Below, piece after piece: positions 12,618 through 35,157 of a stretch of 64,000 nucleotides of DNA. Origin of the DNA: a virus (taxonomy: Duplodnaviria > Caudoviricetes); the IMG/VR virus record IMGVR_UViG_3300050821_001527, positions 96,001-160,000 of that record. One strand, written 5' to 3'. The notes under the pieces were generated by a model that was not told the origin of the DNA, did no database searches, and saw only the letters and a list, made by a program, of their open reading frames with translations. How positions within the stretch are numbered: the stretch's first letter is position 1; each line of letters starts with the position of its first letter. A program made the translations under genes and the position numbers.

Positions 12618-13001
12618 GGGGACGTAATGGTTTCGACATTTATTGTTGAAAGCCGAACGCAAGCACGGGATGATTGTTGGCCCGTTAAAAATTCAATCAA
12701 AACATAAATGCTAACAAAGTAGCACTTAGAAATGCAGTTGACTGCGGAGTAGTTCGCGGTTTTGCAGCATTTGCGATGGCTTAATGCCGTCCCGTCCACC
12801 ACTCCGATTCTCGCTACGAGTGAATGGGCGTAAAAACAGCGGGAAAAAACCCTAGAGCCGGTTCGAGGGTAACGGAACCGGATATTGATGGTGAGTTTTG
12901 CTGCCAGTGTAGCCAATCAAGAATATCAAAGGCTGATAAGCTTGTAGTGTTTTTCTTGCAAACGTAAGTGGACGCGGGTTCAACTCCCGCCGTCTCCACC
13001 A
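12618..13001 (+). ncRNA. ssrA: tmRNA; tag ANKVALRNAVDCGVVRGFAAFAMA* (12710-12784)
   Basis: GGGGACG..TGGTTTCGAC 5' end, T-arm GCGGG-TTCAACT-CCCGC, G3:U70, ACCA end, 384 nt, Ala-Asn-initiated tag. Confidence 0.95.
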
Positions 13002-13006
13002 TTTTC

Positions 13007-13122
13007 GGGGCTACTGGTCAGACTTGATGAACGAAAGCTAATACCGACAAACCGGATTGCTAGAGAATAGCATTTACGCAGGCCGTCATTGAGGCACGGT
13101 TTAACTCCGTGTAGCTCCACCA
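13007..13122 (+). ncRNA. Mini-tmRNA-like RNA (116 nt) with short frame ANTDKPDC*
   Basis: GGGGCTA/TAGCTCC acceptor with G3:U70 and ACCA, stemless D loop CTGGTCAGAC, P2-like helix, T-arm CACGG-TTTAACT-CCGTG. Confidence 0.75.
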
Positions 13123-20681: not shown

Positions 20682-20755
20682 GCGGTAGTGGTGAAATAGT
20701 ATCACACGACGTTGCCAACGTTGAAGCGTCGGGGCAGAACCGACTTACCGCACCA
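20682..20755 (+). tRNA. tRNA-Gly(GCC)
   Basis: Cloverleaf, loop TTGCCAA, T-loop GGCAGAA, CCA. Confidence 0.85.
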
Positions 20756-20833
20756 ATTACTTCTCGCAGGAGTGCGATGGGCCAATCCAAAAGGTTCGCC
20801 CGCTAAAAACTCCCCGTCCAACGACGGGCATAC

Positions 20834-20905
20834 ATCCAGTTGTTCAAGAGAACAATGCGAACTCCAAATCCGCAGAGCAGGGCGCGATACCTTGACTGGA
20901 TGCCA
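20834..20905 (+). tRNA. tRNA-Trp(CCA)
   Basis: Loop CTCCAAA, G73, T-loop CGCGATA, tiny D loop. Confidence 0.75.
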
Positions 20906-20906
20906 T

Positions 20907-21386
20907 TTAATGAGGGTTGTGTTTGACGACCCTTTCGCATAGAGCGATAAACTCGTCAACCGAAAGGTCTTGTTTAGCGTAGTTCACTTCGCTAGTAACC
21001 AAGCCACAGTTCGCCAGAGATGATTCGCCGCCTTTTGAAACTGCGACGATATGGTCTAGGGAATAGGTTTCCGGCTTGGAAATGTCAATTCTTTCACCAG
21101 TAAGATAGCAGCGTGGCTCACTTCCGATTTTATCCTTGAGTTGTTGAACGGTGAATTTGACGACTTTTGGGCGCACAGAACTTCTTCGATTGCCCCTGTA
21201 AAACGTCGCAATCTTAGAAACGAGAGGATTAGTTTCTCGGTAGTTTTTGGTGTTCTTTTGCATAGAAAGCTTTCTGTTCGGGCTGAAACGGTAGATAAGA
21301 GTCCATTTTGAGATTCCGGTTTCCTTGGCAACCGCGTCATAGCTCATTCCGTCAGTAAGCATTTTTTGAATTTTTTCATCGTTCAT
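20907..21386 (-). CDS. HNH homing endonuclease with N-terminal HTH
   Basis: CYLTG, SLDHIVAVSKGG..SLANC, N.AK; GTGTAATA 6 nt upstream. Confidence 0.85.
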   Translation of the reverse strand: MNDEKIQKMLTDGMSYDAVAKETGISKWTLIYRFSPNRKLSMQKNTKNYRETNPLVSKIATFYRGNRRSSVRPKVVKFTVQQLKDKIGSEPRCYLTGERIDISKPETYSLDHIVAVSKGGESSLANCGLVTSEVNYAKQDLSVDEFIALCERVVKHNPH

Positions 21387-21392
21387 ACAAGA

Positions 21393-21400
21393 TATTACAC
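21393..21400 (-). promoter_or_regulatory. Phage GTGTAATA promoter motif
   Basis: 6 nt upstream of ATG 21386. Confidence 0.65.
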
Positions 21401-21437
21401 TTGCAAATTGCCAGTGGGAACTTGCAATGACGATTTT

Positions 21438-21509
21438 GGGCGTGTGTAGAAGGCTACTGGTTTGCTTTGCAAGCAAATTGTCGGGGAGCGTTACCCCGCA
21501 TGTCCACCA
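21438..21509 (+). tRNA. tRNA-Ala(TGC)
   Basis: G3:U70, loop TTTGCAA, T-loop AGCGTTA. Confidence 0.85.
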
Positions 21510-21515
21510 ATTTTA

Positions 21516-21678
21516 CGGGTGTTGGCGAAAGTCAGTCAAGCTGACAGCGGAACCGTTAGAAAACCCGCCAAACGCAACCTCAAGTGTGGAGAATACTGGC
21601 TCATATAATTGCCTGAAAAGGCGATACAATGGGGGTTTTTAATGTCTCCTTGTGGGTATAACTCCCACACACCCGCCA
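21516..21678 (+). ncRNA. tRNA-like RNA with ~110-nt insert replacing the anticodon loop
   Basis: CGGGTGT/ACACCCG-CCA, T-arm GTGGG-TATAACT-CCCAC, inner TAGAAAACCC/GGGTTTTTA helix. Confidence 0.55.
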
Positions 21679-21679
21679 A

Positions 21680-21875
21680 TTTCAGTAGCATTAGCGGTTA
21701 AGGCAATACGATTAGTTACGTGAGCCTCCGTCCACAAGGTAGTGGGTATAATCAAGAAACAAGTGACTCGGTGCCTAAAAGGAGTCATCCCAATGAGCGG
21801 GCGAAAGCTTGTCGCGTTCACCGATTACAAGGTGCATTGGTGCGATAAATGCAGGGTGCGAATCCCAAGCTGAAA
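21680..21875 (+). ncRNA. Structured RNA ending in a T-arm-like hairpin
   Basis: TTTCAG/CTGAAA closing stem, GGG-TGCGAAT-CCC, internal hairpins. Confidence 0.4.
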
Positions 21876-21997
21876 GTATTTCTATCGGCATCAACACAAT
21901 GAACACACCGGCTTAAATGAGTTTCATAACTATGTTGAGTTAGCCGCGTGGTGCTGGTGAGTCGGCGGGTAATCAATCCCGTATGGAGAAAAGTTTC

Positions 21998-22071
21998 GGG
22001 GTTGTGGTTCAATAGCAGAACGGCGGATTCGCAATTCGCAGACGACGGCGCGATACCGTCCTACTCCACCA
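21998..22071 (+). tRNA. tRNA-Ala(CGC)
   Basis: G3:U70, loop TTCGCAA, T-loop CGCGATA. Confidence 0.85.
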
Positions 22072-22081
22072 ATTTCAATTT

Positions 22082-22158
22082 CCGGCCTGCCGTTTGGGTG
22101 CGAGTCCCAAGTTTAAGCAAGTGAAAGCGGCTAACTAGCATAGGTCAATGGTCGGCCA
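22082..22158 (+). ncRNA. Circularly permuted tRNA-like (Y-RNA-like) RNA 1
   Basis: CCGGCC/GGTCGG closing stem; T-arm TTGGG-TGCGAGT-CCCAA precedes D-arm-like TAGCATAGGTCAATG. Confidence 0.5.
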
Positions 22159-22162
22159 ATTT

Positions 22163-22236
22163 GGGGTCATAGTTCAATAGTAGAACGCGAGGCTGGCAGT
22201 CTTGTAATCAGAGTGCGATTCTCTGTGGCTCCACCA
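22163..22236 (+). tRNA. tRNA-Ala(GGC)
   Basis: G3:U70, loop CTGGCAG, T-loop TGCGATT. Confidence 0.85.
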
Positions 22237-22343
22237 ATTTCTGAAACGTTCGGGATGGTGTAACGCGCTTTGGCGGTTCATTCGCCATTGCGAACTTCCG
22301 TTGTATCGAGAGAAGCGAAACGGCGTTTCGGGCAAACTTTAAT

Positions 22344-22437
22344 GGCCGGTGTCCCCATCGGGAGTCTGTAAAACTTCTATGCTTACAAATGTGATGGGAA
22401 GTTGCACCGAAGGAGCGTTACCTTCACCGCGCCACCA
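22344..22437 (+). tRNA. D-armless tRNA-Tyr(GTA)-like RNA
   Basis: Loop CTGTAAA, 10-nt D replacement, 31-nt variable region, T-loop AGCGTTA, ACCA. Confidence 0.6.
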
Positions 22438-22449
22438 ATTTCTTCTTGA

Positions 22450-22648
22450 CCGAAAACCAGACCTGTAAACCGAATGTCCCGGTAGGTTGCACGTATTGGT
22501 GAGTAAGAGGACACAGGAAGGAAAATTTTCATCCACTGGCGCACTGGCGCTAGTGCGAGATTCGGGGTGGGTGGCAATGAAGACCGAAGCCCCGACAACG
22601 CGAAACCTGCAAAAAGTGGTTTAACTACCGAGAGAGAGGACTCGGCGT
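22450..22648 (+). ncRNA. Unknown pseudoknotted structured RNA
   Basis: Crossing pairings CCGAA/TTCGG and GTAGGTT/AACCTGC, nested CCTG/CAGG and TGTCC/GGACA. Confidence 0.4.
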
Positions 22649-22651
22649 AAT

Positions 22652-22727
22652 GGTGGTATTGATGTAATAGTTAGCATCTTCCCCTGTGAAGGGAACTGTG
22701 CGGGTGCGAATCCCGTATATCACCCCA
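22652..22727 (+). tRNA. tRNA-His(GTG)
   Basis: G-1:C73, loop CTGTGAA, T-loop TGCGAAT. Confidence 0.9.
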
Positions 22728-22753
22728 ATTTCATTCACGTAGAACATGAAAGT

Positions 22754-22761
22754 GTGTAATA
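22754..22761 (+). promoter_or_regulatory. Phage GTGTAATA promoter motif
   Basis: 6 nt upstream of ATG 22768. Confidence 0.65.
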
Positions 22762-22767
22762 AAAGTT

Positions 22768-23214
22768 ATGAGCAGCGTTGACTCACTCGAAAACCACGAC
22801 CAGTTCCATTTGGAACAACTGCACAAGCTTTCCTGTCAAAGCGGCTCGAAGGACATTCTCGTTATTGACGATAGCACGGGCGACTTGATGGACATTCAGA
22901 AGATTATGAACCTCAAGTATGCAGACCAATTTCACGTAAGGTATTGTCTGGACGCTGAAAAGGGGATTGAGATTCTCAAGGAAAACAATTTCTTTTTGGT
23001 TTTGCTCGATTTCAAGATGCCGAAGTTGAACGGTCTTGAAGTAATCGAGACGGTAAACAAGATGAAGCAGAACGTTCCGTTCGTAGTTTTGACGGGATAC
23101 GGCGACCCATCCATGCGCGAAGCATTGACAAGATTGGGCGTAATGCTCCTGTTGGACAAGCCAATCACGGAGAAGAAGCTGGACATGCTCCTGACTTTGA
23201 CTCACGCGAAATAA
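22768..23214 (+). CDS. Stand-alone response-regulator receiver (CheY-like)
   Basis: ILVIDD, LLD.KMP..NG, VVLTG, DKP. Confidence 0.9.
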   Translation: MSSVDSLENHDQFHLEQLHKLSCQSGSKDILVIDDSTGDLMDIQKIMNLKYADQFHVRYCLDAEKGIEILKENNFFLVLLDFKMPKLNGLEVIETVNKMKQNVPFVVLTGYGDPSMREALTRLGVMLLLDKPITEKKLDMLLTLTHAK

Positions 23215-23219
23215 TTTCT

Positions 23220-23296
23220 GGCCGCATAGCTCAAATAGATAGAGCAGCACCCCGCGAAGGTGAAGGTTGTAGGTGCGACTCCTACTGTGGCTACCA
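23220..23296 (+). tRNA. tRNA-Arg(GCG)-like with 6-nt anticodon loop
   Basis: CACC-CGCGAA-GGTG lacks U33; rest of cloverleaf intact. Confidence 0.6.
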
Positions 23297-23493
23297 TTTT
23301 CCCGCATAGTCCGTTGAGCAGCCCCGTAGCAACGAGGAAACAAAAGCTTGATGGTTCAGCCAAGCCGTGCGCCAGCGCGGTATTTGCGTGGTGCGAGTCC
23401 ACGGGGAACGATTTATCCCCCTGCTGGTATAGTCCAGCGAAGTAGGTGAGGCTAACCTATGAGTGGTTCGTAACGCACAAGAGGGAATTTTAT

Positions 23494-23576
23494 GGGCATG
23501 TAACCGAAGCAGTCCTCGAAACTGATTAACCGTAATTATGTTGCAAATGTGGGTGAGATTCCCTCCATGCCTACCA
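23494..23576 (+). tRNA. D-armless tRNA-Arg(TCG)-like RNA
   Basis: GGGCATG/CATGCCT-ACCA, CAGT-CCTCGAA-ACTG, long variable region. Confidence 0.55.
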
Positions 23577-23662
23577 ATTTCTCTGTTTGACAATCGAGCC
23601 TAAATAGTCTGCACAGACGGCGCGGGTTCGTAGATGTTGTGCGAAACGGAGGATTCATTTCT

Positions 23663-23755
23663 GTTCCCGTAGCTGAAAGACAGCCGGTGCCCTTATAAAG
23701 CACTTAATCGCTAGATTGGCGTAAGACTCAGGAGCGTTACCTGACGGGAATACCA
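23663..23755 (+). tRNA. tRNA with TAT (Ile) anticodon and long variable arm
   Basis: Loop CTTATAA, D arm GCTG-AAAGA-CAGC, V hairpin TAATC/GATTG; 7/5 or 8/4 fold possible. Confidence 0.7.
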
Positions 23756-23762
23756 AATTTTA

Positions 23763-23846
23763 CGCATCGTGACATAAGCGCGAATAGCACAGCCACACGT
23801 CTCAAAAATGTGAGTTTTAAGGGTGCGAGTCCCTTCGATGCGACCA
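23763..23846 (+). tRNA. tRNA-Leu(CAA), short V, expanded D region
   Basis: Loop CTCAAAA, T-loop TGCGAGT. Confidence 0.7.
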
Positions 23847-23852
23847 ATTTAT

Positions 23853-23928
23853 GTGCCTATGATGGAATAGCATACATACCAGCCTCAGAAGTTGGGTTTT
23901 GCAGGTGCGAGTCCTGCTAGGCATACCA
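23853..23928 (+). tRNA. tRNA-Leu(CAG), short variable loop
   Basis: Loop CTCAGAA, V=GTTTT. Confidence 0.8.
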
Positions 23929-23933
23929 TTTCC

Positions 23934-24017
23934 CGCTCCGTGACCTTGTAGCGAACAGCACAGCTTGCCGTCTTAGACACGGTGGTTTTGCAGGTGCGAG
24001 TCCTGTCGGAGCGACCA
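23934..24017 (+). tRNA. tRNA-Leu(TAG), short V, expanded D region
   Basis: Loop CTTAGAC, T-loop TGCGAGT. Confidence 0.75.
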
Positions 24018-24022
24018 ATTTA

Positions 24023-24110
24023 GCCAGTGTGGTGAAAGAGCAGACACACCATCTTGAGAAGGTGGCGCGAATAAAGTAGCGTGTAGGTGCGAATCCTATC
24101 ACTGGCACCA
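24023..24110 (+). tRNA. tRNA-Leu(GAG)
   Basis: Loop TTGAGAA, long V arm. Confidence 0.9.
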
Positions 24111-24192
24111 ATTTCCTAATGGAAGGTCTGTTAGGACACAGTAGCAGTCGAGATTCTAACCGCCTCGCCGGGGCGTTGCTACACGGCATTAC

Positions 24193-24267
24193 GGTCTATT
24201 GTTGAATGAGTTATCATAGTTCCCTGTCACGGAGCAATAACGGGTGCGAGTCCCGTATAGACCGCCA
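24193..24267 (+). tRNA. tRNA-Asp(GTC)
   Basis: Loop CTGTCAC, G73. Confidence 0.9.
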
Positions 24268-24345
24268 TTTTACGGCTGAGTTAGCGATTCCTGCGCGTGG
24301 GAACGAGACGATTCACTTCGTTTAACTGATGAAGCCGCCAATTTT

Positions 24346-24422
24346 GGGATAGAAGGTAAAGTAGTGGAACCGTTCCGTTGTCTGCGGAAAAAAAGTGGGT
24401 GCGACTCCCATCTATCTCGCCA
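24346..24422 (+). tRNA. tRNA-Asp(GTC), atypical loop TTGTCTG
   Basis: Cloverleaf, G73, U37. Confidence 0.75.
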
Positions 24423-24517
24423 TTTTGTCAGAGAAGTCCGTCAACCATGCGGTTGACCCGTATGGAGAACGTCGAGTTCAGACATATTGTATAGCTGGCC
24501 ACTTAGGACTTCCGTTC

Positions 24518-24595
24518 AGTCAGTGAGGGAGTAAGATAACCCCGACGCCTGCAAAGCGTTTCGTATAGTCGGAGCATTACCGACACTGACTTCCA
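24518..24595 (+). tRNA. tRNA-Cys(GCA)
   Basis: Loop CTGCAAA, U73, T-loop AGCATTA. Confidence 0.85.
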
Positions 24596-24599
24596 TTTC

Positions 24600-24676
24600 G
24601 TCCTAATGGTGTAAGGGAATTACAACACGGTAGTCTTCGGACTACAGATGCAAGCCAACTATTGCAAGGGACTCCA
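24600..24676 (+). pseudogene. Degenerate tRNA-like gene with anticodon arm capped by C-TTCG-G
   Basis: D arm and CCA present; GTAGTC-TTCG-GACTAC; 8-nt T-loop. Confidence 0.45.
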
Positions 24677-24680
24677 ATTT

Positions 24681-24757
24681 CGGTTTGTCGCCTAGTGTTC
24701 ATGGCACTCGCCTTGGGAGCGAGCATAACGCGGGTTAAAATCCCGCCAAGCCGACCA
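24681..24757 (+). tRNA. tRNA-Pro(TGG)
   Basis: CGG start, loop CTTGGGA, T-loop TTAAAAT. Confidence 0.85.
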
Positions 24758-24765
24758 TTTTTTAG

Positions 24766-24843
24766 ACGGGGTATAATGTCAGCAGCTAGACGGCTCCCTT
24801 CGGAGGGGAGAGGCCGTGGGTGCGAATCCCACTACCCCGACCA
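24766..24843 (+). tRNA. tRNA-Pro(CGG)
   Basis: Loop TTCGGAG, T-loop TGCGAAT. Confidence 0.9.
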
Positions 24844-24847
24844 TTTA

Positions 24848-24919
24848 TGCAGGAAGAATGAGATTCAAGCGGGCCTCATAAGCCTACCCCCGTGGACGCG
24901 ACTTCCACTCCTGCTTCCA
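24848..24919 (+). tRNA. tRNA(CAT)-like, reduced D arm
   Basis: Loop CTCATAA, T-loop CGCGACT. Confidence 0.55.
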
Positions 24920-24963
24920 TTTTTTATCGAACAGAAACCGTTCTCCGATATAATAGATATTTA

Positions 24964-25041
24964 CGCGGGGTGGACAAGTAGTAAGTCGTTGGCCTCATAA
25001 GCCAAATATCGTCAGGTGCGATTCCTGACCTCACGCAACCA
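24964..25041 (+). tRNA. Initiator-type tRNA-fMet(CAT)
   Basis: CGCGGGG start, C1:A72 mismatch, loop CTCATAA. Confidence 0.8.
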
Positions 25042-25044
25042 TTT

Positions 25045-25461
25045 ATGGAAGACGCCGTTCTCAACACGCAAAAAGCCTTGGACACCGCATTGGCATCATT
25101 GAATGCGCTGGCTAAAAAAGATTACGTTCCTCCGACAACCCCCGACATTGACCCCGAAACTGAAATGCCGATTAAAGGGAATGGCACGGAAGAATATGAT
25201 ACCGAAGACGCTTACGAGGATGGGGAAGAAGCAGTCCGTCTGTGCATTGAAATTGCCCAGTTGAGGCTAGAGGTCGAGGGCCAGCCCCGCCGTGCTATCG
25301 TCAACACGGAAAAGGCGGCAGAAATCCGAGCAAGGGGAGCGATTGACAAGGTAAGACCAGAGCGTCACCTGAGCGTTTCTCCCGAACTTATCAAGAGTAT
25401 CGAACATTCCGTAGCTAAACCGGAAATGATGTTCTTCGTTTTGGAAGAACCCAAGGAATAA
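25045..25461 (+). CDS. Acidic hypothetical protein
   Basis: 138-aa ORF between tRNAs. Confidence 0.65.
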   Translation: MEDAVLNTQKALDTALASLNALAKKDYVPPTTPDIDPETEMPIKGNGTEEYDTEDAYEDGEEAVRLCIEIAQLRLEVEGQPRRAIVNTEKAAEIRARGAIDKVRPERHLSVSPELIKSIEHSVAKPEMMFFVLEEPKE

Positions 25462-25467
25462 GATTTC

Positions 25468-25542
25468 GCGTTGTTGGCAGAGAAGTGATGCGCTTGCCTT
25501 CCAAGCAAGTTTAAGTGGGAGCATTACCCACACAACGCTCCA
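25468..25542 (+). tRNA. tRNA-Gly(TCC)
   Basis: Loop CTTCCAA, U73. Confidence 0.9.
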
Positions 25543-25545
25543 ATT

Positions 25546-25970
25546 TGTCCGAAGCTATAATCCCCGTGCGTAATAGCACTAAGCGCAAGTAGGCCGAAAG
25601 GCAGAACCGTGATGGTGGATGAACTGCTCGTCTAAAATATCGGCTACATAATTTAGTCAGGTCGTCGGTCTGTCGTTGCGGTGAGCAATCACCAAGCCTA
25701 TGGGACGGCGGCTCGAAAAGGTATCCGTAAGCTGGCAGGAATCGCTTGTGCAAGATTCCACTACCGAAGGAGAATGCGGCGAAAGCCAAGTTCGTTCGCA
25801 CTTGTAGTAGGTCAGTCATCTCAGCCGAGGCAGGCATTTTCAAAATCGTTAGGGTTAGTCCAACCACGGTAAAACGTGAGAGGGGTCATAAAAGACTGCA
25901 AGCGTCACCCTGCCTAAAACCCCCTGTTGGTGAGTGGATAGTTGAAAACGAGGTCAGCGATGACCTGACT
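25546..25970 (+). ncRNA. Candidate large (~425 nt) structured ncRNA
   Basis: No credible ORF or tRNA; GNRA-capped hairpins at 25593, 25680, 25778, 25952. Confidence 0.55.
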
Positions 25971-25973
25971 TTT

Positions 25974-26049
25974 AGCCGCATGGTGAAATTACAATCACAC
26001 AATCCTGCGAAGATTGAAGTCCCGGTGAGATTCCGGGTGCTGGCTACCA
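25974..26049 (+). tRNA. tRNA-Arg(GCG)
   Basis: Loop CTGCGAA, T-loop TGAGATT. Confidence 0.85.
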
Positions 26050-26053
26050 TTTT

Positions 26054-26128
26054 GCGACATAGGTGTTTATAGATACACGCGAGTCTTCCAAACTTGAGTA
26101 GTGAGTGCGATACTCACACGTCGCTCCA
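26054..26128 (+). tRNA. tRNA-Gly(TCC)
   Basis: Loop CTTCCAA, U73. Confidence 0.85.
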
Positions 26129-26192
26129 ATTTATGCACCCAAAACTTGCAAGTTACTCGACCCATGAATCGAGTGTGGTGCAACCAATTTAT

Positions 26193-26267
26193 TCCCTAGT
26201 AGTGTCAAAGTAGCACGTCTCCCTGTTAAGGAGTTTAGTGTTGGTGCGAGTCCAACCTTCGGAACCA
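26193..26267 (+). tRNA. tRNA-Asn(GTT), mismatched acceptor
   Basis: Loop CTGTTAA. Confidence 0.7.
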
Positions 26268-26279
26268 TTTAGTCAGCAT

Positions 26280-26364
26280 TCCAGAGTAGGAGAATTGGTA
26301 AACCCAGCGGACTGTTAATCCGCCGCGAAAGCAACTGCTCGTTCAAGTCGAGCCTCTGGAGCCA
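26280..26364 (+). tRNA. tRNA-Asn(GTT) with long variable arm
   Basis: Loop CTGTTAA, V hairpin GC-GAAA-GC, canonical GG/TTC elbow, G73. Confidence 0.85.
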
Positions 26365-26474
26365 TTTTCAAGACATTTCCCCTGACGAAAGCTCTACGAT
26401 GTAGAACATCGCACCAGCAAGTCATGGTTACATGACGTGTCCGTGGACGCACGGAAGCGGGGAGTTTGAATTTT

Positions 26475-26552
26475 GCATCCGTCAACCAAACGCGTAAATG
26501 ACTCGGGCTTTTAACCCAAAGGATGTGGTCACGCAAGCCACCGGATGCACCA
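26475..26552 (+). tRNA. tRNA-Lys(TTT)
   Basis: Loop CTTTTAA, T-loop CACGCAA. Confidence 0.75.
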
Positions 26553-26670
26553 ATTTCTACCTGAACACAAGTGCTATGTCATCGAGCCAAGTCACGGTTA
26601 TTGTGTATCGTGAAAATTCCGTTGACAATGTAGCAATGCGCGAGAAAGACGCGCACGGGTTCCTTTTCAT

Positions 26671-26744
26671 AGGGATATAGTATAAAAGTAGAACGGCACC
26701 CTGACACGGTGAAGGCGAAGGAGCGTTACCTTCTATCCCTACCA
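26671..26744 (+). tRNA. tRNA-Val(GAC)
   Basis: Loop CTGACAC, T-loop AGCGTTA. Confidence 0.9.
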
Positions 26745-26750
26745 TTTTAT

Positions 26751-26831
26751 GAGAATCGAGACGCGGGTGCATATCCCGCCTGCCTGTTTAAATACTTGCA
26801 GTAGCTTAGTAGCAGAGCGCGATTCGTCTCC
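26751..26831 (+). ncRNA. Circularly permuted tRNA-like (Y-RNA-like) RNA 2
   Basis: GAATCG/CGATTC closing stem; T-arm, loop-closed CTGC/GCAG acceptor, then D arm TAGCTTAGTAGCAGAGC. Confidence 0.75.
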
Positions 26832-26838
26832 CTTTTAC

Positions 26839-26917
26839 GGAACGGTAACTCAAATGGGTCAAGAGTGTTCGCCCGATTAGCGAAAGGTTGTGGACTCCCA
26901 AGCCACTCGTTCTACCA
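26839..26917 (+). tRNA. tRNA-Ile(GAT), loop CCGATTA
   Basis: Cloverleaf with irregular T-loop. Confidence 0.65.
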
Positions 26918-26922
26918 ATCAC

Positions 26923-26995
26923 GGTTCCATACGATAAAGCAGTCCCCATGCCCGATTAGCGTGGTGTCTTGGTGCGAGTCCAAGTGGAACTACCA
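26923..26995 (+). tRNA. tRNA-Ile(GAT), loop CCGATTA
   Basis: GGTTCCA/TGGAACT, T-loop TGCGAGT. Confidence 0.7.
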
Positions 26996-27000
26996 TTTAC

Positions 27001-27076
27001 TGCCCTTTAGCTCATTCAGCAGAGCGGCGTCTTGATAAGGCGAAGGTGGTCGGGGCAGAGCCGACAAGGGCAACCA
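27001..27076 (+). tRNA. tRNA-Ile(GAT)
   Basis: Loop TTGATAA, T-loop GGCAGAG. Confidence 0.9.
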
Positions 27077-27079
27077 ATT

Positions 27080-27244
27080 ATGAAACCATACGGATTGACA
27101 AAGAAAATCCTACACAACCATCCCGATGTTCACCCGCCGAAGGGCTGGGTCAACTGGTGGGAAAGCGAAACGAGGGACTGTCTCCGCAAGAAAGCAGAAC
27201 GCCAACAGGCGAAAAAACAGATTTTACAAGATTTGGCTTCGTAG
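27080..27244 (+). CDS. Small basic hypothetical protein
   Basis: MKPYG start; stop TAG is nt 8-10 of tRNA-Lys. Confidence 0.6.
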   Translation: MKPYGLTKKILHNHPDVHPPKGWVNWWESETRDCLRKKAERQQAKKQILQDLAS

Positions 27245-27311
27245 CTCAAGCGTCAAGAGCAGCCGCCTTTTAAGCGGAAGCGTCCGGGCAGTCAATCCGG
27301 TGGGGCCACCA
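27235..27311 (+). tRNA. tRNA-Lys(TTT)
   Basis: Loop CTTTTAA, T-loop CAGTCAA. Confidence 0.85.
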
Positions 27312-27457
27312 ATTTATAAACACCTAGACCGTGTGCGATACCGGCATGGTTTCGTGAGTCGGCTATGTCGAAGCCGAAGAAGATTCGCGGGACTTGGAGT
27401 GTGAAAGAAGCACGGGTGTATTTTTTTGAATAAAAAGCGGATTCGTTTATCATAGGT

Positions 27458-27835
27458 ATGCAAAACGTTTATCTGAACCGCGACGAACTCCTGCCGATTG
27501 TCAAGGAGAACAAGCAAAAGCACGACAACATTTTTTCCACAGCCGTTTCCGGCTATTGGGTCAAGGCCGAAGAAATCCTGAACGGCAAACTGAACAAGGT
27601 CAAAGCCAAGCAGCAAGTTGACAATTACCTTGGACTCAGCTATCCCGAAGACCATTCTGATGAATATGACCGAGTAATCAGGATGCTGGAACTTTCGTCT
27701 GATGACAAGATTCAGCTTACGTCTTCCGAGTTTGATTGCTATGTTCGCAATCAATGGAACTGGCGCAAGGCGTTCTTGACGGTCAATTCAACATACATTT
27801 CGGACTGGAACCCCATTTCCGGGGCTTCATTCTAA
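27458..27835 (+). CDS. Conserved-looking phage hypothetical protein
   Basis: P.DHSDEYDRVIRMLE motif. Confidence 0.7.
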   Translation: MQNVYLNRDELLPIVKENKQKHDNIFSTAVSGYWVKAEEILNGKLNKVKAKQQVDNYLGLSYPEDHSDEYDRVIRMLELSSDDKIQLTSSEFDCYVRNQWNWRKAFLTVNSTYISDWNPISGASF

Positions 27836-27915
27836 CAGTCTTGGTCGAGGCGTGGGTTCGATTCCGCCGTGTGGCTCCATGCCGCACGTAGCTTAGTGGC
27901 AGAGCGCGACCTGTT
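27834..27915 (+). ncRNA. Circularly permuted tRNA-like (Y-RNA-like) RNA 3, Thr/Gly-type acceptor
   Basis: 3' half (GGTCG, TTCGATT T-loop, CGTGTGGC-TCCA), 1 nt, then 5' half (GCCGCACG, D arm, CGACC); ends pair AACAG/CTGTT. Confidence 0.8.
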
Positions 27916-27916
27916 C

Positions 27917-27991
27917 GGGGCTATGGTGCAGAAGTAAGCACGTTAGGTTCTCAACCTGAAAACGTCGGAGCGTTACCGACTAGCCCTACCA
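27917..27991 (+). tRNA. tRNA-Glu(CTC)
   Basis: Loop TTCTCAA, T-loop AGCGTTA. Confidence 0.85.
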
Positions 27992-27997
27992 ATTTAC

Positions 27998-28073
27998 GGG
28001 GGAGTGGTGCATAAGTAAGCACGGTTGGCTTTCACCCAGCAGAAGCTCGGAGCGTTACCGGCCTCCCCTACCA
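27998..28073 (+). tRNA. tRNA-Glu(TTC)
   Basis: Loop CTTTCAC. Confidence 0.85.
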
Positions 28074-28078
28074 TTTCT

Positions 28079-28156
28079 GTAGCTGACCAGTAAGTCGTCG
28101 TCTGCTCTGGCTTTCAACCAGATGTGTAGTGGGTGCGAGTCCCACCAGCTATGCCA
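28079..28156 (+). tRNA. tRNA-Glu(TTC)
   Basis: Loop CTTTCAA, irregular D arm. Confidence 0.75.
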
Positions 28157-28219
28157 TTTCCGGGGTGCGCCTCGTCAATTCGTTGATAGGACGGCGAATA
28201 TATCACCCCACTTTTTCTC

Positions 28220-28297
28220 GGTTCCGTGGTGTAAATGGATTAAGCACAAGAGACTTTGACCCTCTTAGCTCCGGGTGCCAGCCGGACGGAACTGCCA
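28220..28297 (+). tRNA. tRNA-Gln(TTG)
   Basis: Loop CTTTGAC. Confidence 0.8.
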
Positions 28298-28304
28298 TTT
28301 TTAT

Positions 28305-28380
28305 TCCCTCTTGGATTGTAATAGTAGCAACTCGGGCTTTGAACCCGAAAGCGGTGGGGCAGAACCATCAGAGGGAGCCA
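28305..28380 (+). tRNA. tRNA-Gln(TTG)
   Basis: U1:A72, loop CTTTGAA, G73. Confidence 0.9.
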
Positions 28381-28465
28381 TTTATCGGGGTAAGGGTGTA
28401 TTCGTGTAACGACCACTCGGAAGGAGTCTGGAAGCTTACGGACAAACTTCGTCCCCATCTATTTT

Positions 28466-28541
28466 CGGAGTGTATTGTCAACAGCAGACGGCCCGCCTTG
28501 GAAGTGGGAGGTAGTTGGGGCAGCACCAACCATTCCGACCA
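28466..28541 (+). tRNA. tRNA-Pro(TGG)
   Basis: Loop CTTGGAA, T-loop GGCAGCA. Confidence 0.9.
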
Positions 28542-28545
28542 ATTT

Positions 28546-28728
28546 ATGAACACTGAAAAAATCGTAGGTCAAGAATATCCAGCCGAATGTCTCGTTGATT
28601 CCAAGACGGGTCTGCCGGTGATGATTCGTCATACCGAAGATTCGGACAGGATTCGTCAGTTGGCGAAGGCCAGCGCGGAGAACCTTCTGAGGGCTTTGCG
28701 AGACGAAACGGGGCTGACGCCCATTTAA
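28546..28728 (+). CDS. Hypothetical protein (60 aa)
   Basis: ATG just after tRNA-Pro. Confidence 0.55.
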   Translation: MNTEKIVGQEYPAECLVDSKTGLPVMIRHTEDSDRIRQLAKASAENLLRALRDETGLTPI

Positions 28729-28733
28729 TTTAC

Positions 28734-28809
28734 GGGTCTATAACTCAAATAGATAGAGCCTCGCCTTCTAAGCGATGGGATTCAGGTGCGACTCCTGATA
28801 GACCTACCA
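28734..28809 (+). tRNA. tRNA-Arg(TCT)
   Basis: Loop CTTCTAA, T-loop TGCGACT. Confidence 0.9.
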
Positions 28810-28852
28810 TTTCTAGTATAGCCACATGGCGTTTCACAAGTGCTTCAACTAG

Positions 28853-28860
28853 GTGTAATT
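28853..28860 (+). promoter_or_regulatory. Phage GTGTAATT promoter motif
   Basis: 6 nt upstream of ATG 28867. Confidence 0.6.
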
Positions 28861-28866
28861 CTAGGT

Positions 28867-29343
28867 ATGGGCCACAAAGCTACAAACGAACAACTGGCGG
28901 TTATTATCGCAGAGTCTATTTCCTTCTCTGAGGCAATGAGAAAATGCGATATGAAGCCAAGGGGAGCGTCTTACCAATGGTTTCAAAAACGAGTTAAGAA
29001 GCTCGGATTAGACACGTCTCATTTTAAGGGATACTCGGCTGGTGGTCTGGAAAGGGCCAAGCAGATAAAGAAGCATTGGTCGGAGATTCTTGTTTTAGGA
29101 GACGGTTCGGGCAGAGAAAGGTCAGAGCCTCTTAGGAGGGCTTTTAAAGAATACTGCTTAGAGCAGGCAGTCCCACATATTTGCAACGTCTGCAACGTCT
29201 GCAAGATGGAACCAATTTGGAATGGCCAGCCAATGATATTTCAAATTGACCACATCAATTCAATCAATTTCGATAACAGACCGCTGAACCTTCAATGGAT
29301 TTGCGGCAACTGTCATCAACAGAAAAATTCTAACGGCTACTAA
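28867..29343 (+). CDS. HNH homing endonuclease
   Basis: LGLDTSHF.G N-terminus, CxxC, QIDHINSI..DNR..NL..ICGNCH. Confidence 0.9.
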   Translation: MGHKATNEQLAVIIAESISFSEAMRKCDMKPRGASYQWFQKRVKKLGLDTSHFKGYSAGGLERAKQIKKHWSEILVLGDGSGRERSEPLRRAFKEYCLEQAVPHICNVCNVCKMEPIWNGQPMIFQIDHINSINFDNRPLNLQWICGNCHQQKNSNGY

Positions 29344-29410
29344 GCTAATCAAGTGAAAGCAGCGGACTGAAAATCCGTGGAGTTTGGCGCGATACCAAAA
29401 GTAGCCACCA
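29335..29410 (+). tRNA. tRNA-Phe(GAA)
   Basis: Loop CTGAAAA, T-loop CGCGATA. Confidence 0.9.
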
Positions 29411-29415
29411 ATTTT

Positions 29416-29563
29416 GGGTATATGTTGTAATGGCAGCAAAAAGGGCGGGAGAGTCGAGGGAATAGCAGACCAACTATAGCTCTGTAAGCCTAGTAGCTCG
29501 ATTTGAAAACCTGAATACTCGTCTATACGAGTGGCCTCGGTTCGATTCCGGGTATATCCACCA
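29416..29563 (+). tRNA. tRNA with ~52-nt hairpin insert in the anticodon loop, long V arm, G3:U70
   Basis: GGGTATA/TATATCC-ACCA, D arm with GG, ACTCGT/ACGAGT V arm, TTCGATT T-loop; identity unresolved. Confidence 0.65.
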
Positions 29564-29567
29564 ATCT

Positions 29568-29646
29568 CCGTCAGTAGCTCAAATGTGGTAAGAGCGTTGG
29601 TTTGAAACACCAAAGGTTGTCGTTCCCCAAACGACTTGACGGGCCA
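29568..29646 (+). tRNA. tRNA-Phe(GAA)
   Basis: Loop TTGAAAC, T-loop TCCCCAA. Confidence 0.75.
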
Positions 29647-29666
29647 TTTTAAGTGTATAATTCTGT

Positions 29667-29921
29667 GTGGAAGCACTAGCAAAACAGACCCTTCAATGTG
29701 ATGACTGCAAGAAAGTCATTGACACCCGCCGCGATACTGACCTTGAGGACAGCATCCAAGCGAAGTTGAAGAACCTCAAGGGCGACCCGCAGGTTTATCA
29801 TTTCTGCGCGGAAAGCTGCCTTGCCTCCTTTTTGCAGAAGCGCATCAAGAAAAAGAACGCCCGCGCCTCATACGACGCTTTCGCCTACGAGATTGATTTG
29901 TCCGGGGCAAAGGTTAAATAA
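29667..29921 (+). CDS. Small Cys-containing hypothetical protein
   Basis: CDDC, FC..SC. Confidence 0.6.
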   Translation: MEALAKQTLQCDDCKKVIDTRRDTDLEDSIQAKLKNLKGDPQVYHFCAESCLASFLQKRIKKKNARASYDAFAYEIDLSGAKVK

Positions 29922-30130
29922 TGAAATTTTCATCTTTCGCCAAGCTTGTGTTGATTTTCGGGGCAGCGATTATGCTCCTTGATGGTTGCGCTCTCGTTGG
30001 TTGTAATCACGCATTCCCGCAAGTCGAATGGTATTGGTCAGCCGATGCTAAAGCCTGTCGCAAGGAACACGCGATGGAAGCCCAGTGGCGACAGTCCGCA
30101 ACAAACAATTTAAGGCAGTCGTTCAAGTGA
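29921..30130 (+). CDS. Small lipoprotein-like protein
   Basis: Signal peptide with LDGC; stop lies in next tRNA. Confidence 0.55.
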   Translation: MKFSSFAKLVLIFGAAIMLLDGCALVGCNHAFPQVEWYWSADAKACRKEHAMEAQWRQSATNNLRQSFK

Positions 30131-30184
30131 ACAAGATGCTCTCATAAGGCGTCAAGGATGGAGCGTTACCATCGTCTGCTACCA
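30114..30184 (+). tRNA. tRNA(CAT) elongator Met or Ile2
   Basis: Loop CTCATAA, 4-nt D loop. Confidence 0.75.
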
Positions 30185-30189
30185 ATTTC

Positions 30190-30266
30190 GGATTCGTAGC
30201 TCAAATGCTAAGAGCAGCCGGTTCTTACCCGGAAGGTTGTGGCTCGTCAAGCCACCGAGTCCACCA
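30190..30266 (+). tRNA. tRNA-Lys(CTT)
   Basis: Loop TTCTTAC, T-loop TCGTCAA. Confidence 0.85.
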
Positions 30267-30344
30267 TTTATGGCCGTCAGCCTGAACCCCATCAGGCTAG
30301 TCCACCAAGGACGATGCAGAGGGTTATGCAACGGCATCCATTTC

Positions 30345-30416
30345 GCCAGTGCCGTCAGCACGGATTCGAGTTTTGTAAACTTGAAGCAGTCGGGGCAGCA
30401 CCGACCTCTGGCTCCA
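30345..30416 (+). tRNA. tRNA-Thr(TGT)
   Basis: Loop TTTGTAA, CAGC D tetraloop, U73. Confidence 0.8.
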
Positions 30417-30420
30417 TTTC

Positions 30421-30556
30421 GCCGTTCTAGTTCAATGTAGAACACGTCTCTCGAAAAGCCGATAGGCTCCCTGAACGGAGCAGTTAGTGGGGTGTTTGCC
30501 CTGCGATGTAATAAGGCCAGATGAACTGCTGGTGCCAAGTCCAGCGAACGGCTCCA
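30421..30556 (+). tRNA. Thr-type tRNA body with ~62-nt insert in the anticodon loop
   Basis: GCCGTTC/GAACGGC-TCCA, D arm GTTC/GAAC, anticodon stem CGTCT/AGATG. Confidence 0.7.
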
Positions 30557-30626
30557 AACTAGGCTGCGCGTGGTAGCCTCAGAGGGGTGAAAGTCCCTAA
30601 CCACGACAAATTTAATTCAATTTAAT

Positions 30627-30701
30627 CGCCCGTTCTGAATAATAGTAGTTCGTCGCGCTCTGAACGCGAAGGCGGTGGGGCAGAACCATCACGGGTGGCC
30701 A
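30627..30701 (+). tRNA. tRNA-Gln(CTG)
   Basis: Loop CTCTGAA, G73. Confidence 0.85.
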
Positions 30702-30706
30702 TTTAC

Positions 30707-30780
30707 GCGGGATTAGCTCAAAAGTAGAGCGAGTCGTTTACACCGACAGGACGAGGGAGCATTACCTTCATTCCGCACCA
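30707..30780 (+). tRNA. tRNA-Val(TAC)
   Basis: Loop TTTACAC. Confidence 0.9.
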
Positions 30781-30785
30781 TTTAC

Positions 30786-30862
30786 GCAATCGAAGCTACA
30801 GCAGACCGGCTCCCGGCTCTTAACCGGATTTGGTGAGGTTGCAACTACCTCCGATTGCACCA
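30786..30862 (+). tRNA. tRNA-Lys(CTT)
   Basis: Loop CTCTTAA, T-loop TGCAACT. Confidence 0.8.
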
Positions 30863-30866
30863 TTTC

Positions 30867-30946
30867 GCGGTCTTAGCTTAAACGGATAAAAGCCCTTCGC
30901 TCTTAACGAATGAGATGTCGCCCTCCAAGCAGGACAGACCGCACCA
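30867..30946 (+). tRNA. tRNA-Lys(CTT), aberrant T arm
   Basis: Loop CTCTTAA, 3-bp T stem with large loop. Confidence 0.65.
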
Positions 30947-31006
30947 ATTTGATTACACCCCTGCCGCCTCTTGACAATGCGTAATCGCAGGGGTTTTTCC
31001 ATTTAT

Positions 31007-31092
31007 GGCCGTGTGTAGCGTAAGGGAAAAGCAGAACCGATAGACTTAAAATCTGTTGCTACTTGAGGGTGCAAGACCGTCCACGGCTACCA
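31007..31092 (+). tRNA. tRNA-Leu(TAA), expanded D region, 8-nt V
   Basis: Loop CTTAAAA, T-loop TGCAAGA. Confidence 0.75.
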
Positions 31093-31111
31093 ATTTAGTG
31101 TAATGTTTGTC

Positions 31112-31189
31112 ATGGACAACTCAAAGCCTTGGTGGAAAGAAGAATGGTTTGAAACTTGGCTGAAAATTGCCCGCCGTCAGTTCTCGTAA
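31112..31189 (+). CDS. 25-aa Trp-rich micropeptide
   Basis: ATG 6 nt after GTGTAATG (31098-31105). Confidence 0.45.
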   Translation: MDNSKPWWKEEWFETWLKIARRQFS

Positions 31190-31193
31190 ATGC

Positions 31194-31201
31194 GTGTAAT
31201 A
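31194..31201 (+). promoter_or_regulatory. Phage GTGTAATA promoter motif
   Basis: 6 nt upstream of ATG 31208. Confidence 0.65.
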
Positions 31202-31207
31202 AGAAGT

Positions 31208-31966
31208 ATGGGAAAGTTACTAAGACTCGGAAGAAAGCAAGCCCGCTTCGACAAGCGCACTTTGAAGCTGGAAGACTACATTTCTGCTGATTTACAGTTC
31301 CCCCGCAAGGTTGTTTGGCAGAACAAGATTCCAAATTGGGGCATGATGCTTAACGACCAGTTGGGAGATTGCACCTGTGCCGCTGCCGGTCACATGATTA
31401 TGAACTGGACGGCCAATGCGGGCGTCCTCGTCACCCCAAACGACAACCAAATTCTTTCCGCTTACGAAGCCGTTGGGGGATACAACCCAAATGCCGCTCC
31501 CGACGCCAATGGAAACAACCCAACCGATAACGGTGCCGTTGAACTTGACGTTTTGAAGTATTGGCAGGGAACCGGAATCGCCGGTCACAAAATCGGGGCT
31601 TACGTCAGCATTGACCCGAAGAACAGACGCCACTTGAAGTTGGCTATCTGGCTGTTTGGGGGAATTTACACAGGTGTCAACCTCACGCAAGCGGACATGG
31701 ACGCCACCAACGCAAACCAGCCTTGGAAATACACCACCGGTTCCTCGATTGGCGGTCACGCCATTCCTGCCTTGGGATTCAACCAGCACGGCTTTCAATT
31801 CATTACATGGGGAGCCGTTCAAACGGCCACTCCTGAATGGGTCGCCAACCAAACCGAAGAAGTTTACGCCTTGATTTCCGCAGATTGGCTTGAAAACAAT
31901 GGCAATGCTCCCTCTGGTTTTGATGCTCAACAACTTGCCGCCGACTTAAAAAGCGTCCAAAACTAA
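31208..31966 (+). CDS. Papain-like (C1-type) cysteine peptidase
   Basis: DQLGDCTCAA catalytic Cys, GGHAI catalytic His, ITWG. Confidence 0.8.
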   Translation: MGKLLRLGRKQARFDKRTLKLEDYISADLQFPRKVVWQNKIPNWGMMLNDQLGDCTCAAAGHMIMNWTANAGVLVTPNDNQILSAYEAVGGYNPNAAPDANGNNPTDNGAVELDVLKYWQGTGIAGHKIGAYVSIDPKNRRHLKLAIWLFGGIYTGVNLTQADMDATNANQPWKYTTGSSIGGHAIPALGFNQHGFQFITWGAVQTATPEWVANQTEEVYALISADWLENNGNAPSGFDAQQLAADLKSVQN

Positions 31967-32010
31967 TTCAAAATATTTGCTTGGGCCAAGCCATCCGGGT
32001 ATAATATGGC

Positions 32011-33357: not shown

Positions 33358-33370
33358 ATTGAATTTTATT

Positions 33371-33460
33371 GGAAGATAAAGTAGTGAGGCAGCTACAACG
33401 CGGTGCTAACGCGATTGCCCCTCTAAAGGGGGTGGGGTTCGAGTCCTCTATCTTCCGCCA
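33371..33460 (+). tRNA. tRNA-Ser(GCT)
   Basis: Loop GTGCTAA, long V, TTC T-loop, G73. Confidence 0.9.
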
Positions 33461-33465
33461 AATTT

Positions 33466-33678: not shown

Positions 33679-33718
33679 ATTTCTTGACTTCCCATGAAAA
33701 TTTTCATAGGATAATGGG

Positions 33719-34432: not shown

Positions 34433-34448
34433 CGTAGTATCATTTTAC

Positions 34449-34526: not shown

Positions 34527-34532
34527 ATCTAC

Positions 34533-35006: not shown

Positions 35007-35078
35007 TTTACGATAGCCGTCACACGCCCGCTGGCGGTCAATCCAGATTGCGGGCTTTAGAGTTCTCTGGAATTGTAT

Positions 35079-35153: not shown

Positions 35154-35157
35154 TTTT

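Follow-up and report, generated by a model that had tools for sequence, protein, structure and literature searches.

A small, uncatalogued family of cloverleaf-like RNAs in the transfer RNA arrays of uncultured phages

Within the transfer RNA (tRNA) array of an uncultured soil jumbo phage of 203 kb lies a 163-base unit, here called shell 1, that belongs to a small, uncatalogued family of phage RNAs of 163-177 bases with a cloverleaf-like four-way junction. The family is real, and hardly any published description exists of RNAs of this kind. The stretch analysed, referred to as the window, comprises 64,000 nucleotides, from base 96001 to base 160000 of one virus record (IMGVR_UViG_3300050821_001527; 202,882 bp) that is estimated to be 91% complete; the sequencing runs that contain the window sequence are soil metagenomes. 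Positions are those of the window unless another record is named. From the letters alone, an initial annotation had described three consecutive tRNA-like shells here, each consisting of an acceptor stem and T-arm closed over a large interior without an anticodon, and had proposed that such ends let RNase P release cargo RNAs. On balance we find it probable that the three stretches are units of a long tRNA-array transcript that have kept the tRNA end module and are not decoders, and that the interior of shell 1 is functional and is released through an RNase P-type maturation. The three units are:

Shell 1, 21516-21678, + strand: cloverleaf-shaped non-decoding RNA of 163 bases, identified by its fold z-score, its homologues and covariance model R1.
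Shell 2, 21680-21875, + strand: candidate unit of 196 bases with a 7-pair closing stem, the T-loop motif of the array and four to five internal hairpins.
Shell 3, 21879-21989, + strand: candidate unit of 111 bases with a 7-pair closing stem and an atypical terminal hairpin, CGGG-TAATCAAT-CCCG.

The minimum-energy fold of shell 1 closes exactly as the initial annotation had drawn it (z = -3.4; 1 of 200 shuffles as good). Full homologues (n = 3), together with one partial variant, are found in phage tRNA arrays from IMG/VR and from metagenomes:

L157, 2183-2359, - strand: found by BLAST of the shells against the >118 IMG/VR loci that carry the T-arm of the array.
L208, 630-795: metagenome contig, found by pattern search.
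L209 (identical to L207), 230-405: metagenome contig, found by pattern search.

The pattern that retrieved L208 and L209 was taken from the two most conserved blocks of shell 1. The partial variant, the fifth sequence of the family, is a 151-base record from soil DNA run X1 and has a compensated hairpin, AACAG/CTGTT. All four full copies are flanked by tRNA-type units, and the tRNA directly upstream of the L209 copy is the counterpart of the one at 20682-20755 in the window. Covariance model R1 scores the full members at 164-184 bits and found no additional member in ~1.2 Mb of loci. A match of 19 bits in L098 spans ordinary tRNAs and was rejected. A 17-base probe from shell 1 retrieved L157 only from IMG/VR, plus two chance matches, and two probes had zero matches in 185,579 prokaryote genomes. 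A blastn search with 21516-21997 against 50,697 GenBank phage records returned nothing, and Rfam had no match on the shells at the gathering threshold, at E up to 1 or at E up to 10.

The structure of the family is read from covariation. Pair counts were taken from the four full members realigned to model R1 (alignment A6). Six helices run through all four, namely the acceptor, the D-like stem, a hairpin, the anticodon-like stem, the inner Px stem and the T-arm; 95.5% of their alignment cells are paired and 22 of the 33 pairs are altered on both sides. None of 500 shuffles reaches these counts on any measure, and partners slid along the alignment pair at 40-49%. The same pairs are visible by eye in a plain MAFFT alignment. 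The elements are:

Acceptor stem, 5′ strand CGGGTGT 21516-21522 and 3′ strand ACACCCG 21669-21675, + strand: all 8 aligned pairs altered on both sides; window CGGGTGT/ACACCCG, L157 TGGG(C)GAG/CTCCCCA, L208 CAACTATG/CATAGTTG, L209 TGAATACT/AGTATTCA.
D-like stem, TGGCG 21523-21527 with CGCCA 21566-21570, + strand: 90% of cells paired; surrounds a 38-base insertion.
Hairpin GTCAG/CTGAC in the D-like insertion, 21531-21545, + strand: 100% paired, 3 of 5 pairs altered on both sides; window GTCAG/CTGAC, L157 GTTAG/CTGAC, L208 GTTAG/CTAAC, L209 GTTGT/ACAAC.
Anticodon-like stem, GGAGA 21588-21592 with TCTCC 21645-21649, + strand: 100% paired, 4 of 5 pairs altered on both sides; window and L157 GGAGA/TCTCC, L208 GAAGA/TCTTC, L209 ATCGG/CCGAT.
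Px stem CTCAT/ATGGG with a capped hairpin of variable length, 21600-21633, + strand: 100% paired, 4 of 5 pairs altered on both sides; window CTCAT/ATGGG, L157 TCCAA/TTGGG, L208 CCAAT/ATTGG, L209 CTAGT/ACTAG.
T-arm GTGGG-TATAACT-CCCAC, 21652-21668, + strand: stem 100% paired, 3 of 5 pairs altered on both sides; window GTGGG/CCCAC, L157 and L208 GAAGG/CCTTC, L209 ATTGG/CCAAT.
Encoded CCA followed by ATTT, the punctuation of the array, 21676-21678, + strand: window copy only.

The acceptor stem has 7 pairs in the window, 8 in the alignment of the homologues and 7 with a bulge in L157. Together with the clean T-arm, it had been pointed out in the initial annotation as CGGGTGT/ACACCCG-CCA, and both elements are there in the sequence and in the minimum-energy fold and co-vary in the four homologous copies. 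Support is weaker for the D-like stem, in which one C-G pair becomes U-A in L209, as judged by eye and with a one-base shift; an alternative pairing of GCG with CGC 21573-21575 accommodates the L209 change equally well. The interior of the Px hairpin differs in length and sequence in each member. CCA is encoded in one of the four members, that of the window, and the trailers of the other three start with TAT. RNAalifold further suggested that the acceptor 5′ strand pairs with CGCCAAACGC; this helix is present in the window and L157 and not in L208 or L209, and was rejected. As a separate observation, the invariant flanks AGTGT and ATACT might form an alternative hairpin round the 5′ strand of the anticodon-like stem (21588-21599), so that two conformations of shell 1 are possible.

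What does not vary in the family is the single-stranded interior. In alignment A4, four strands are identical in all four members:

AACCGTTAGAAAAC, 21551-21564, + strand: partly contained in the search pattern and hence biased.
CAACCTCAAGTGT, 21575-21587, + strand: in the connector that leads from the D-like stem to the anticodon-like stem; partly contained in the search pattern.
ATACTGG, 21593-21599, + strand: 5′ side of an internal loop; outside every search pattern.
GGGTTTTTAATG, 21633-21644, + strand: 3′ side of the same loop.

The last of these is kept in the metagenome homologues though it was absent from the pattern that found them. The connector is 17 bases long, as against 1 base in a tRNA. 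The anticodon-like stem leads into the conserved asymmetric internal loop, and the variable capped hairpin projects from that loop. Since these strands are invariant while the helices of the shell drift and co-vary, we take the interior to be the functional part of shell 1. Two of its stretches, CGTTAGAAAACCC (21554-21566) and GGGGGTTTTTAATG (21631-21644), are complementary at 12 of 13 positions and are paired in the single-sequence fold; because both are invariant, they offer no covariation. If the D-like stem forms, their pairing would possibly be a long-range pseudoknot joining both expanded arms.

A route for the release of such a unit can be sketched from known substrates. RNase P cleaves several non-tRNA substrates with tRNA-like ends, including transfer-messenger RNA (tmRNA), phage M3 RNA, C4 RNA and viral tRNA-like ends, and T4 tRNA precursors without CCA depend on the host CCA enzyme (PMC11143913). 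With engineered 'tRNA scaffolds', bacteria process an RNA built into the body of a tRNA, and the RNA is stable in them (PMC3753655). Shell 1 has the geometry of an RNase P substrate: a coaxial stack of acceptor and T-stem of ~12 pairs (7+5 in the window, 8+5 in L208 and L209, 7+5 with a bulge in L157) and a single-stranded 5′ leader, which is of 6 bases after the preceding CCA. By analogy, release of the shells by RNase P is plausible. The enzyme would recognise the acceptor/T-arm stack and cut the 5′ end of shell 1, a 3′ nuclease would trim the trailer, and the CCA would either be encoded, as in the window copy, or be added by a CCA-adding enzyme, a homologue of which the phage encodes. The outcome would be a tRNA-shaped RNA that is stable and, through its conserved strands, binds a partner; our guess at this partner is a host or phage tRNA-binding factor. 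The RNA runs X3 and X4 contain the stretch as assembled contigs without joints, a form in which ends, strand and level are not readable, and run X5 contains a small share of the sequence words, none of them in the shells.

To judge by outline only, shells 2 and 3 probably follow the plan of shell 1 as lineage-specific units. In shell 2, the closing stem pairs TTTCAGT 21680-21686 with GCTGAAA 21869-21875 (7 pairs, one G-U), and GGTGCGAATCC (21855-21865) is the T-loop motif of the array, identical to those of working array tRNAs. Both features had been reported in the initial annotation and hold; the T-arm is looser than was then described, the T stem having 3 clean pairs only and being followed by 2 unpaired bases before the acceptor strand. 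In shell 3, the closing stem (TTTCTAT 21879-21885 with ATGGAGA 21983-21989, two G-U pairs) and the CGGCATC/GGTGCTG helix are present as described, but the arm that had been called T-like has a stem of 4 pairs and a loop of 8 bases, which is not T-loop-like. Folded alone, both units close as described. They start 2-4 bases after the end of the preceding unit, as the array tRNAs do, and the + strand fold across them is 7 kcal/mol better than that of the - strand. Two such units tile the 319-base gap between shell 1 and the next tRNA exactly; among dinucleotide shuffles, 3 of 5000 show the same, and 0 of 5000 if the ends are kept.

Relatives were found for shell 1 and for neither of the other two. 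Searches with nhmmer (shells 2-5 against all loci) gave no match, BLAST of the shells against array-type loci gave no relative of shells 2 and 3, and a search of the whole L157 contig record gave nothing for them. Probes of 18 bases from shell 2 and 17 bases from shell 3 met unrelated contexts only in IMG/VR, and alignment of both shells to the region after the L209 copy of shell 1 was no better than with shuffles. Thus the general claim of an acceptor/T-arm module enclosing a non-tRNA interior is borne out by covariation for shell 1, and shells 2 and 3 bring no homologues to it. Two similar shells that had been listed elsewhere, at 23299-23411 and 36911-37024, do close in the minimum-energy fold, but with ordinary energies (z = -1.3 and -1.1).

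Two side observations were made in these searches. The region that follows the L209 copy of shell 1 (L209 406-790) is a gene-free stretch of 385 bases with one fold, a 15-pair terminal stem and z = -2.5, and has no similarity to shells 2 and 3. Five unrelated IMG/VR contigs with a match to GCGGGTAATCAATCCCG (L215, L219, L225, L226 and L231) share a block ...CCGCGCGAG...GTAGCCTCCGGCGGGTAATCAATCCCGAA... upstream of the start of an open reading frame (ORF), which looks like a conserved leader RNA motif unrelated to shell 3.

In our reading, shell 1 is a carrier RNA, cloverleaf-shaped and non-decoding, and not a tRNA with introns. All four tRNA-type stems are arranged round one junction, and three of them co-vary strongly. 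The likeness to the tRNA-like domain of tmRNA that was suggested at the outset applies to the acceptor/T-arm module, but shell 1 has a full four-way junction, with D-like and anticodon-like stems that each carry an insertion. That it has no anticodon proved correct throughout the family: no member has a 7-base anticodon loop, the anticodon-like stem enclosing 52-66 bases (n = 4), and a conserved GG/AG pair of the D-loop was not found across the members. RF00005 does not match 21516-21997 even at E up to 10 (threshold 29 bits; the neighbours score 51-55 bits), ARAGORN is silent there, and Rfam gave no match on the shells to RF00023, RF02553, Intron_gpI or any other intron family, nor to RF02553 over 21300-38000 at E up to 1. 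A true tRNA gene with introns, reading Lys-UUU (TTTTTAA) or ACU (ATACTGG) after splicing, perhaps via the RtcB of the phage, might be proposed because these two motifs flank the anticodon-like stem and resemble anticodon loops of 7 bases (U in position 2, purine in position 6), because the phage encodes an RtcB ligase, and because oversized tRNA genes with conserved 'introns' have been reported in Lak megaphages (PMC6784885). We hold this to be very improbable. Three excisions would be needed, of the 38-base D-loop insertion, the 17-base connector and the 52-base anticodon-loop insertion; no bulge-helix-bulge motif is seen by inspection, and no group I intron or other Rfam family matches shell 1 with its inserts of 38, 17 and 52 bases. 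Moreover, the inserted strands are the most conserved and the would-be exons (acceptor, T-arm, T-loop, discriminator and CCA) drift, the reverse of what an intron-bearing tRNA would show. The array already encodes two Lys-UUU and two Lys-CUU tRNAs as well as Ser-GCU tRNAs, and the L157 record has a Lys-UUU tRNA alongside its copy of shell 1. The joined form is absent from the two metatranscriptome runs X3 and X4, which is weak evidence as these are contigs only. An aminoacylated tRNA mimic, charged at its CCA and acting on the ribosome or a synthetase in the manner of the tmRNA domain or of the tRNA-like ends of plant viruses, strikes us as quite improbable too. It would suit the acceptor/T-arm module, the CCA-ATTT end of the window copy, which is exactly that of the array tRNAs, and a phage that also encodes a real tmRNA (12618-13001). 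Against it, CCA is absent from three of the four members, the discriminator and acceptor sequences vary, so that there is no stable synthetase identity set, a G3-U70 pair is lacking (the window has G-C as its third acceptor pair), the short ATG frame of the window copy is not conserved in the homologues, and Rfam finds no tmRNA on the shells. That the whole pattern is chance folding of intergenic DNA is extremely improbable, even though either strand of the window has ~5 loose patterns of closing stem and hairpin per kb. For shell 1 it is ruled out by covariation in six helices and by homologues with high scores in the tRNA arrays of other phages; for shells 2 and 3 the tiling test and the T-loop motif speak against it.

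Returning to the reading of all three stretches as processed units, several results weigh against it. The full members of the shell 1 family number only four, three of which came from patterns derived from the family, and a structure-fitted alignment leans to the model. The T-loops of the family are not conserved (TATAACT, CGCAATC, TCAAGT, TAAAAAT) and are not T-loop-like in sequence. With an acceptor bulge and no CCA, L157 does not guarantee efficient recognition by RNase P and the CCA enzyme. One metatranscriptome contig (2,848 bases; 21000-23155) is continuous through the region and also spans an opposite-strand gene, so that either precursor RNA or carried-over DNA may be its source. For shells 2 and 3 the fold energies lie within the shuffle range (z = -1.5 and -1.4), and 21677-21997 taken as one piece prefers a ~19-pair helix between the 5′ part of shell 2 and the 3′ part of shell 3 (-94.4 versus -87.3 kcal/mol for two separate folds). 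Neither has homologues in ~2.6 Mb of related loci, in the IMG/VR exact-word probes or among GenBank phages; the criteria of the tiling test were set post hoc, and a closing stem with a hairpin next to it, loosely defined, is frequent by chance outside the array (4.6 per kb). The initial annotation had named the lack of discrete RNAs, together with folding no better than shuffled controls, as a result that would refute it; shell 1 folds better, whereas shells 2 and 3, which do not and which have no homologues, are not established by that test. Quite possibly, though we doubt it, they are not two processed RNAs, and the ~320 bases are one larger folded RNA or a decaying spacer with a relic tRNA T-arm. 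The long helix linking the two, the ordinary z-scores, the failure of every search for a homologue and the frequency of the loose pattern would all be in keeping with this, as would the sequence found 3′ of shell 1 in other arrays: a tRNA 7 bases on in L208, ~45 bases and then a tRNA-type unit in L157, and an unrelated 385-base region closed by a 15-pair stem in L209. It is countered by the rarity of exact two-unit tiling in shuffles, by a T-loop motif in shell 2 that is the same as in working array tRNAs, by the tRNA-like spacing at which both units begin, and by the more stable fold of the + strand.

A bolder proposal, which we consider unlikely, would make shell 1 a new class of phage effector RNA. 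Its tRNA-shaped chassis would display a pseudoknotted interior to a specific host target and would only borrow the maturation and protection machinery of tRNAs, shells 2 and 3 being fast-evolving members of the same toolkit. CGUUAGAAAAC would then be paired with GUUUUUAAUG, beside the AUACUGG and CAACCUCAAGUGU strands, and possible targets would be the ribosome, a modification enzyme or a defence nuclease that acts on tRNAs.

RNAC and RNAD of phage T4 have tRNA-like paired ends and are RNase P-dependent. These species 1 and 2 RNAs are not tRNAs but small and stable transcripts of the T4 tRNA gene region, and they have no known role (PMC3014915, PMC9697503). The shells likewise lie within a phage tRNA cluster, but there is no sequence match between them and the T4 RNAs (blastn, 50,697 phage records), and shell 1 differs in keeping a four-way junction with three expansions and in occurring in jumbo phages from soil that have tRNAs with altered T-loops. 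The tRNA-like domain of tmRNA (RF00023) also places an acceptor on a T-arm, lacks an anticodon, has a large interior and is an RNase P substrate (PMC11143913); it has a conserved alanine identity pair, a CCA end, pseudoknots and a tag frame, none of which is conserved in shell 1. Lak megaphages have oversized tRNA-type genes with strongly conserved, 'enigmatic' inserts (Devoto et al., 2019; PMC6784885). Those genes were interpreted as tRNAs with a single intron and an assignable anticodon, whereas in shell 1 there are three insertions, an anticodon loop that could be used is lacking and the shell drifts. The engineered tRNA scaffold of Ponchon and Dardel (PMC3753655) likewise carries a cargo in the anticodon arm and leaves processing and stabilisation to cellular tRNA enzymes; it is man-made and has normal D and T arms, while shell 1 is natural and has cargo in the D-loop too. 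YrlA and other bacterial and phage Y RNAs (RF02553; PMC4201824) are non-decoding tRNA mimics, some of them phage-borne, but they have a Ro60-binding stem and a tRNA-like part that is differently arranged, and RF02553 does not match the shells. GOLLD and ROOL (PMC12286853), structured phage RNAs without a known function, are found close to tRNA islands; they exceed 500 bases, have no acceptor/T-arm closure and gave no Rfam match on the shells. In sum, shell 1 is unrelated in sequence to its nearest published parallels and does not group with tRNAs, tmRNAs or YrlA.

The array itself is unusual in ways that bear on the setting of the shells. On the window, ARAGORN finds 1 tmRNA and 17 tRNAs, and Rfam finds 20 tRNAs at threshold with further ones below it. 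A scan for a 5-pair T-arm followed by 7 bases, the discriminator and CCA gives ~55 tRNA-type units at 20682-37825. The units adjoin one another and most terminate in N-CCA-ATTT. The 26 + strand copies of CCAATTT, at 21507-31090, indicate that this is the punctuation of the array, the next unit starting a few bases on. The GGTGCGANTCC T-loop motif has 17 copies, all on the + strand within the array, against 0.09 expected. The T-loops of nearly all units are NGCNNNN and not TTCRANN, with G at the position of the universal U55; positions 54 and 58 vary together (TGCGA, AGCGT, AGCAT, CGCGA, GGCAG), and TTC is kept in ~5 units. The odd T-arm with its punctuation (GGAGCGTTACC, 11 bases, CCAATTT) is present in >118 IMG/VR stretches, and such a style of tRNA is thus widespread among uncultured phages. 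A blastn search of GenBank phages with the array matched ordinary tRNAs only. Consensus promoter and terminator scans were at chance level. The immediate neighbours of the three stretches are:

Upstream, 21438-21509, + strand: 72-base tRNA-type unit with anticodon loop TTTGCAA, read by script as Ala-UGC, ending in A-CCA-ATTT.
Downstream, 21998-22071, + strand: tRNA scoring 51.4 bits in Rfam and ending in A-CCA-ATTT.

Two further units of the window stand out:

13007-13122: further shell-type RNA of 116 bases, six bases after the tmRNA, with a perfect 7-pair acceptor GGGGCTA/TAGCTCC, a TTTAACT T-loop and A-CCA; a tRNA interior is not recognisable.
29416-29563: unit of 148 bases in which the acceptor looks normal, the D-arm has GG in its loop, a long hairpin resembles a variable arm, the T-loop is the canonical TTCGATT and CCA is present.

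The second of these has ~70 bases in place of the anticodon arm. Upstream of the shell 1 copy in L157, on its - strand (2480-2890), a normal tRNA 5′ half (GGGGGTAGCTCAGTAGTAGAGC...) is followed by ~330 bases and a canonical T-arm, GTAGG-TTCGAAT-CCTAC, without a matching acceptor 3′ strand; the tRNA gene may be broken here or contain a large insertion.

Several genes and one RNA element accompany the array. An RtcB-type RNA ligase is encoded at 59297-60466 (PHROG 1075, E = 3.6e-113) and a protein of the CCA-adding/poly(A) polymerase family beyond the window, at genome positions 9726-10106 (PF01743, 77.6 bits); together they make up a tRNA repair and maturation kit of the phage. Relatives of the RtcB are at most 58% identical and are thus not close kin. 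The array is interrupted on the - strand, just upstream of the shells, by an HNH/HTH homing-endonuclease-like ORF (20907-21389) and on the + strand by an ORF for a stand-alone response-regulator receiver domain (22768-23214; PF00072, E = 2.5e-18). In a search for kin by way of neighbouring proteins, the latter and a 448-aa ORF had no relatives in IMG/VR, and the HNH ORF met unrelated loci only. A raiA-motif-like RNA also lies within the array, at 25659-25966 (RF03072, 54.9 bits, E = 3.7e-11, below the threshold of 101).

In the tRNA arrays of large phages, the pieces that tRNA finders miss are treated as spacer by annotators. Shell 1 indicates that at least some of this spacer is selected, folded RNA that keeps only those parts of a tRNA that are needed for processing, and its combination of conserved cargo and drifting shell points to a specific molecular job of the interior. 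The role of non-decoding, tRNA-shaped phage RNAs is a question that dates from RNAC and RNAD of T4. With ~165 bases, six supported helices and four invariant strands, the shell 1 family offers a compact case in which it can be tested.

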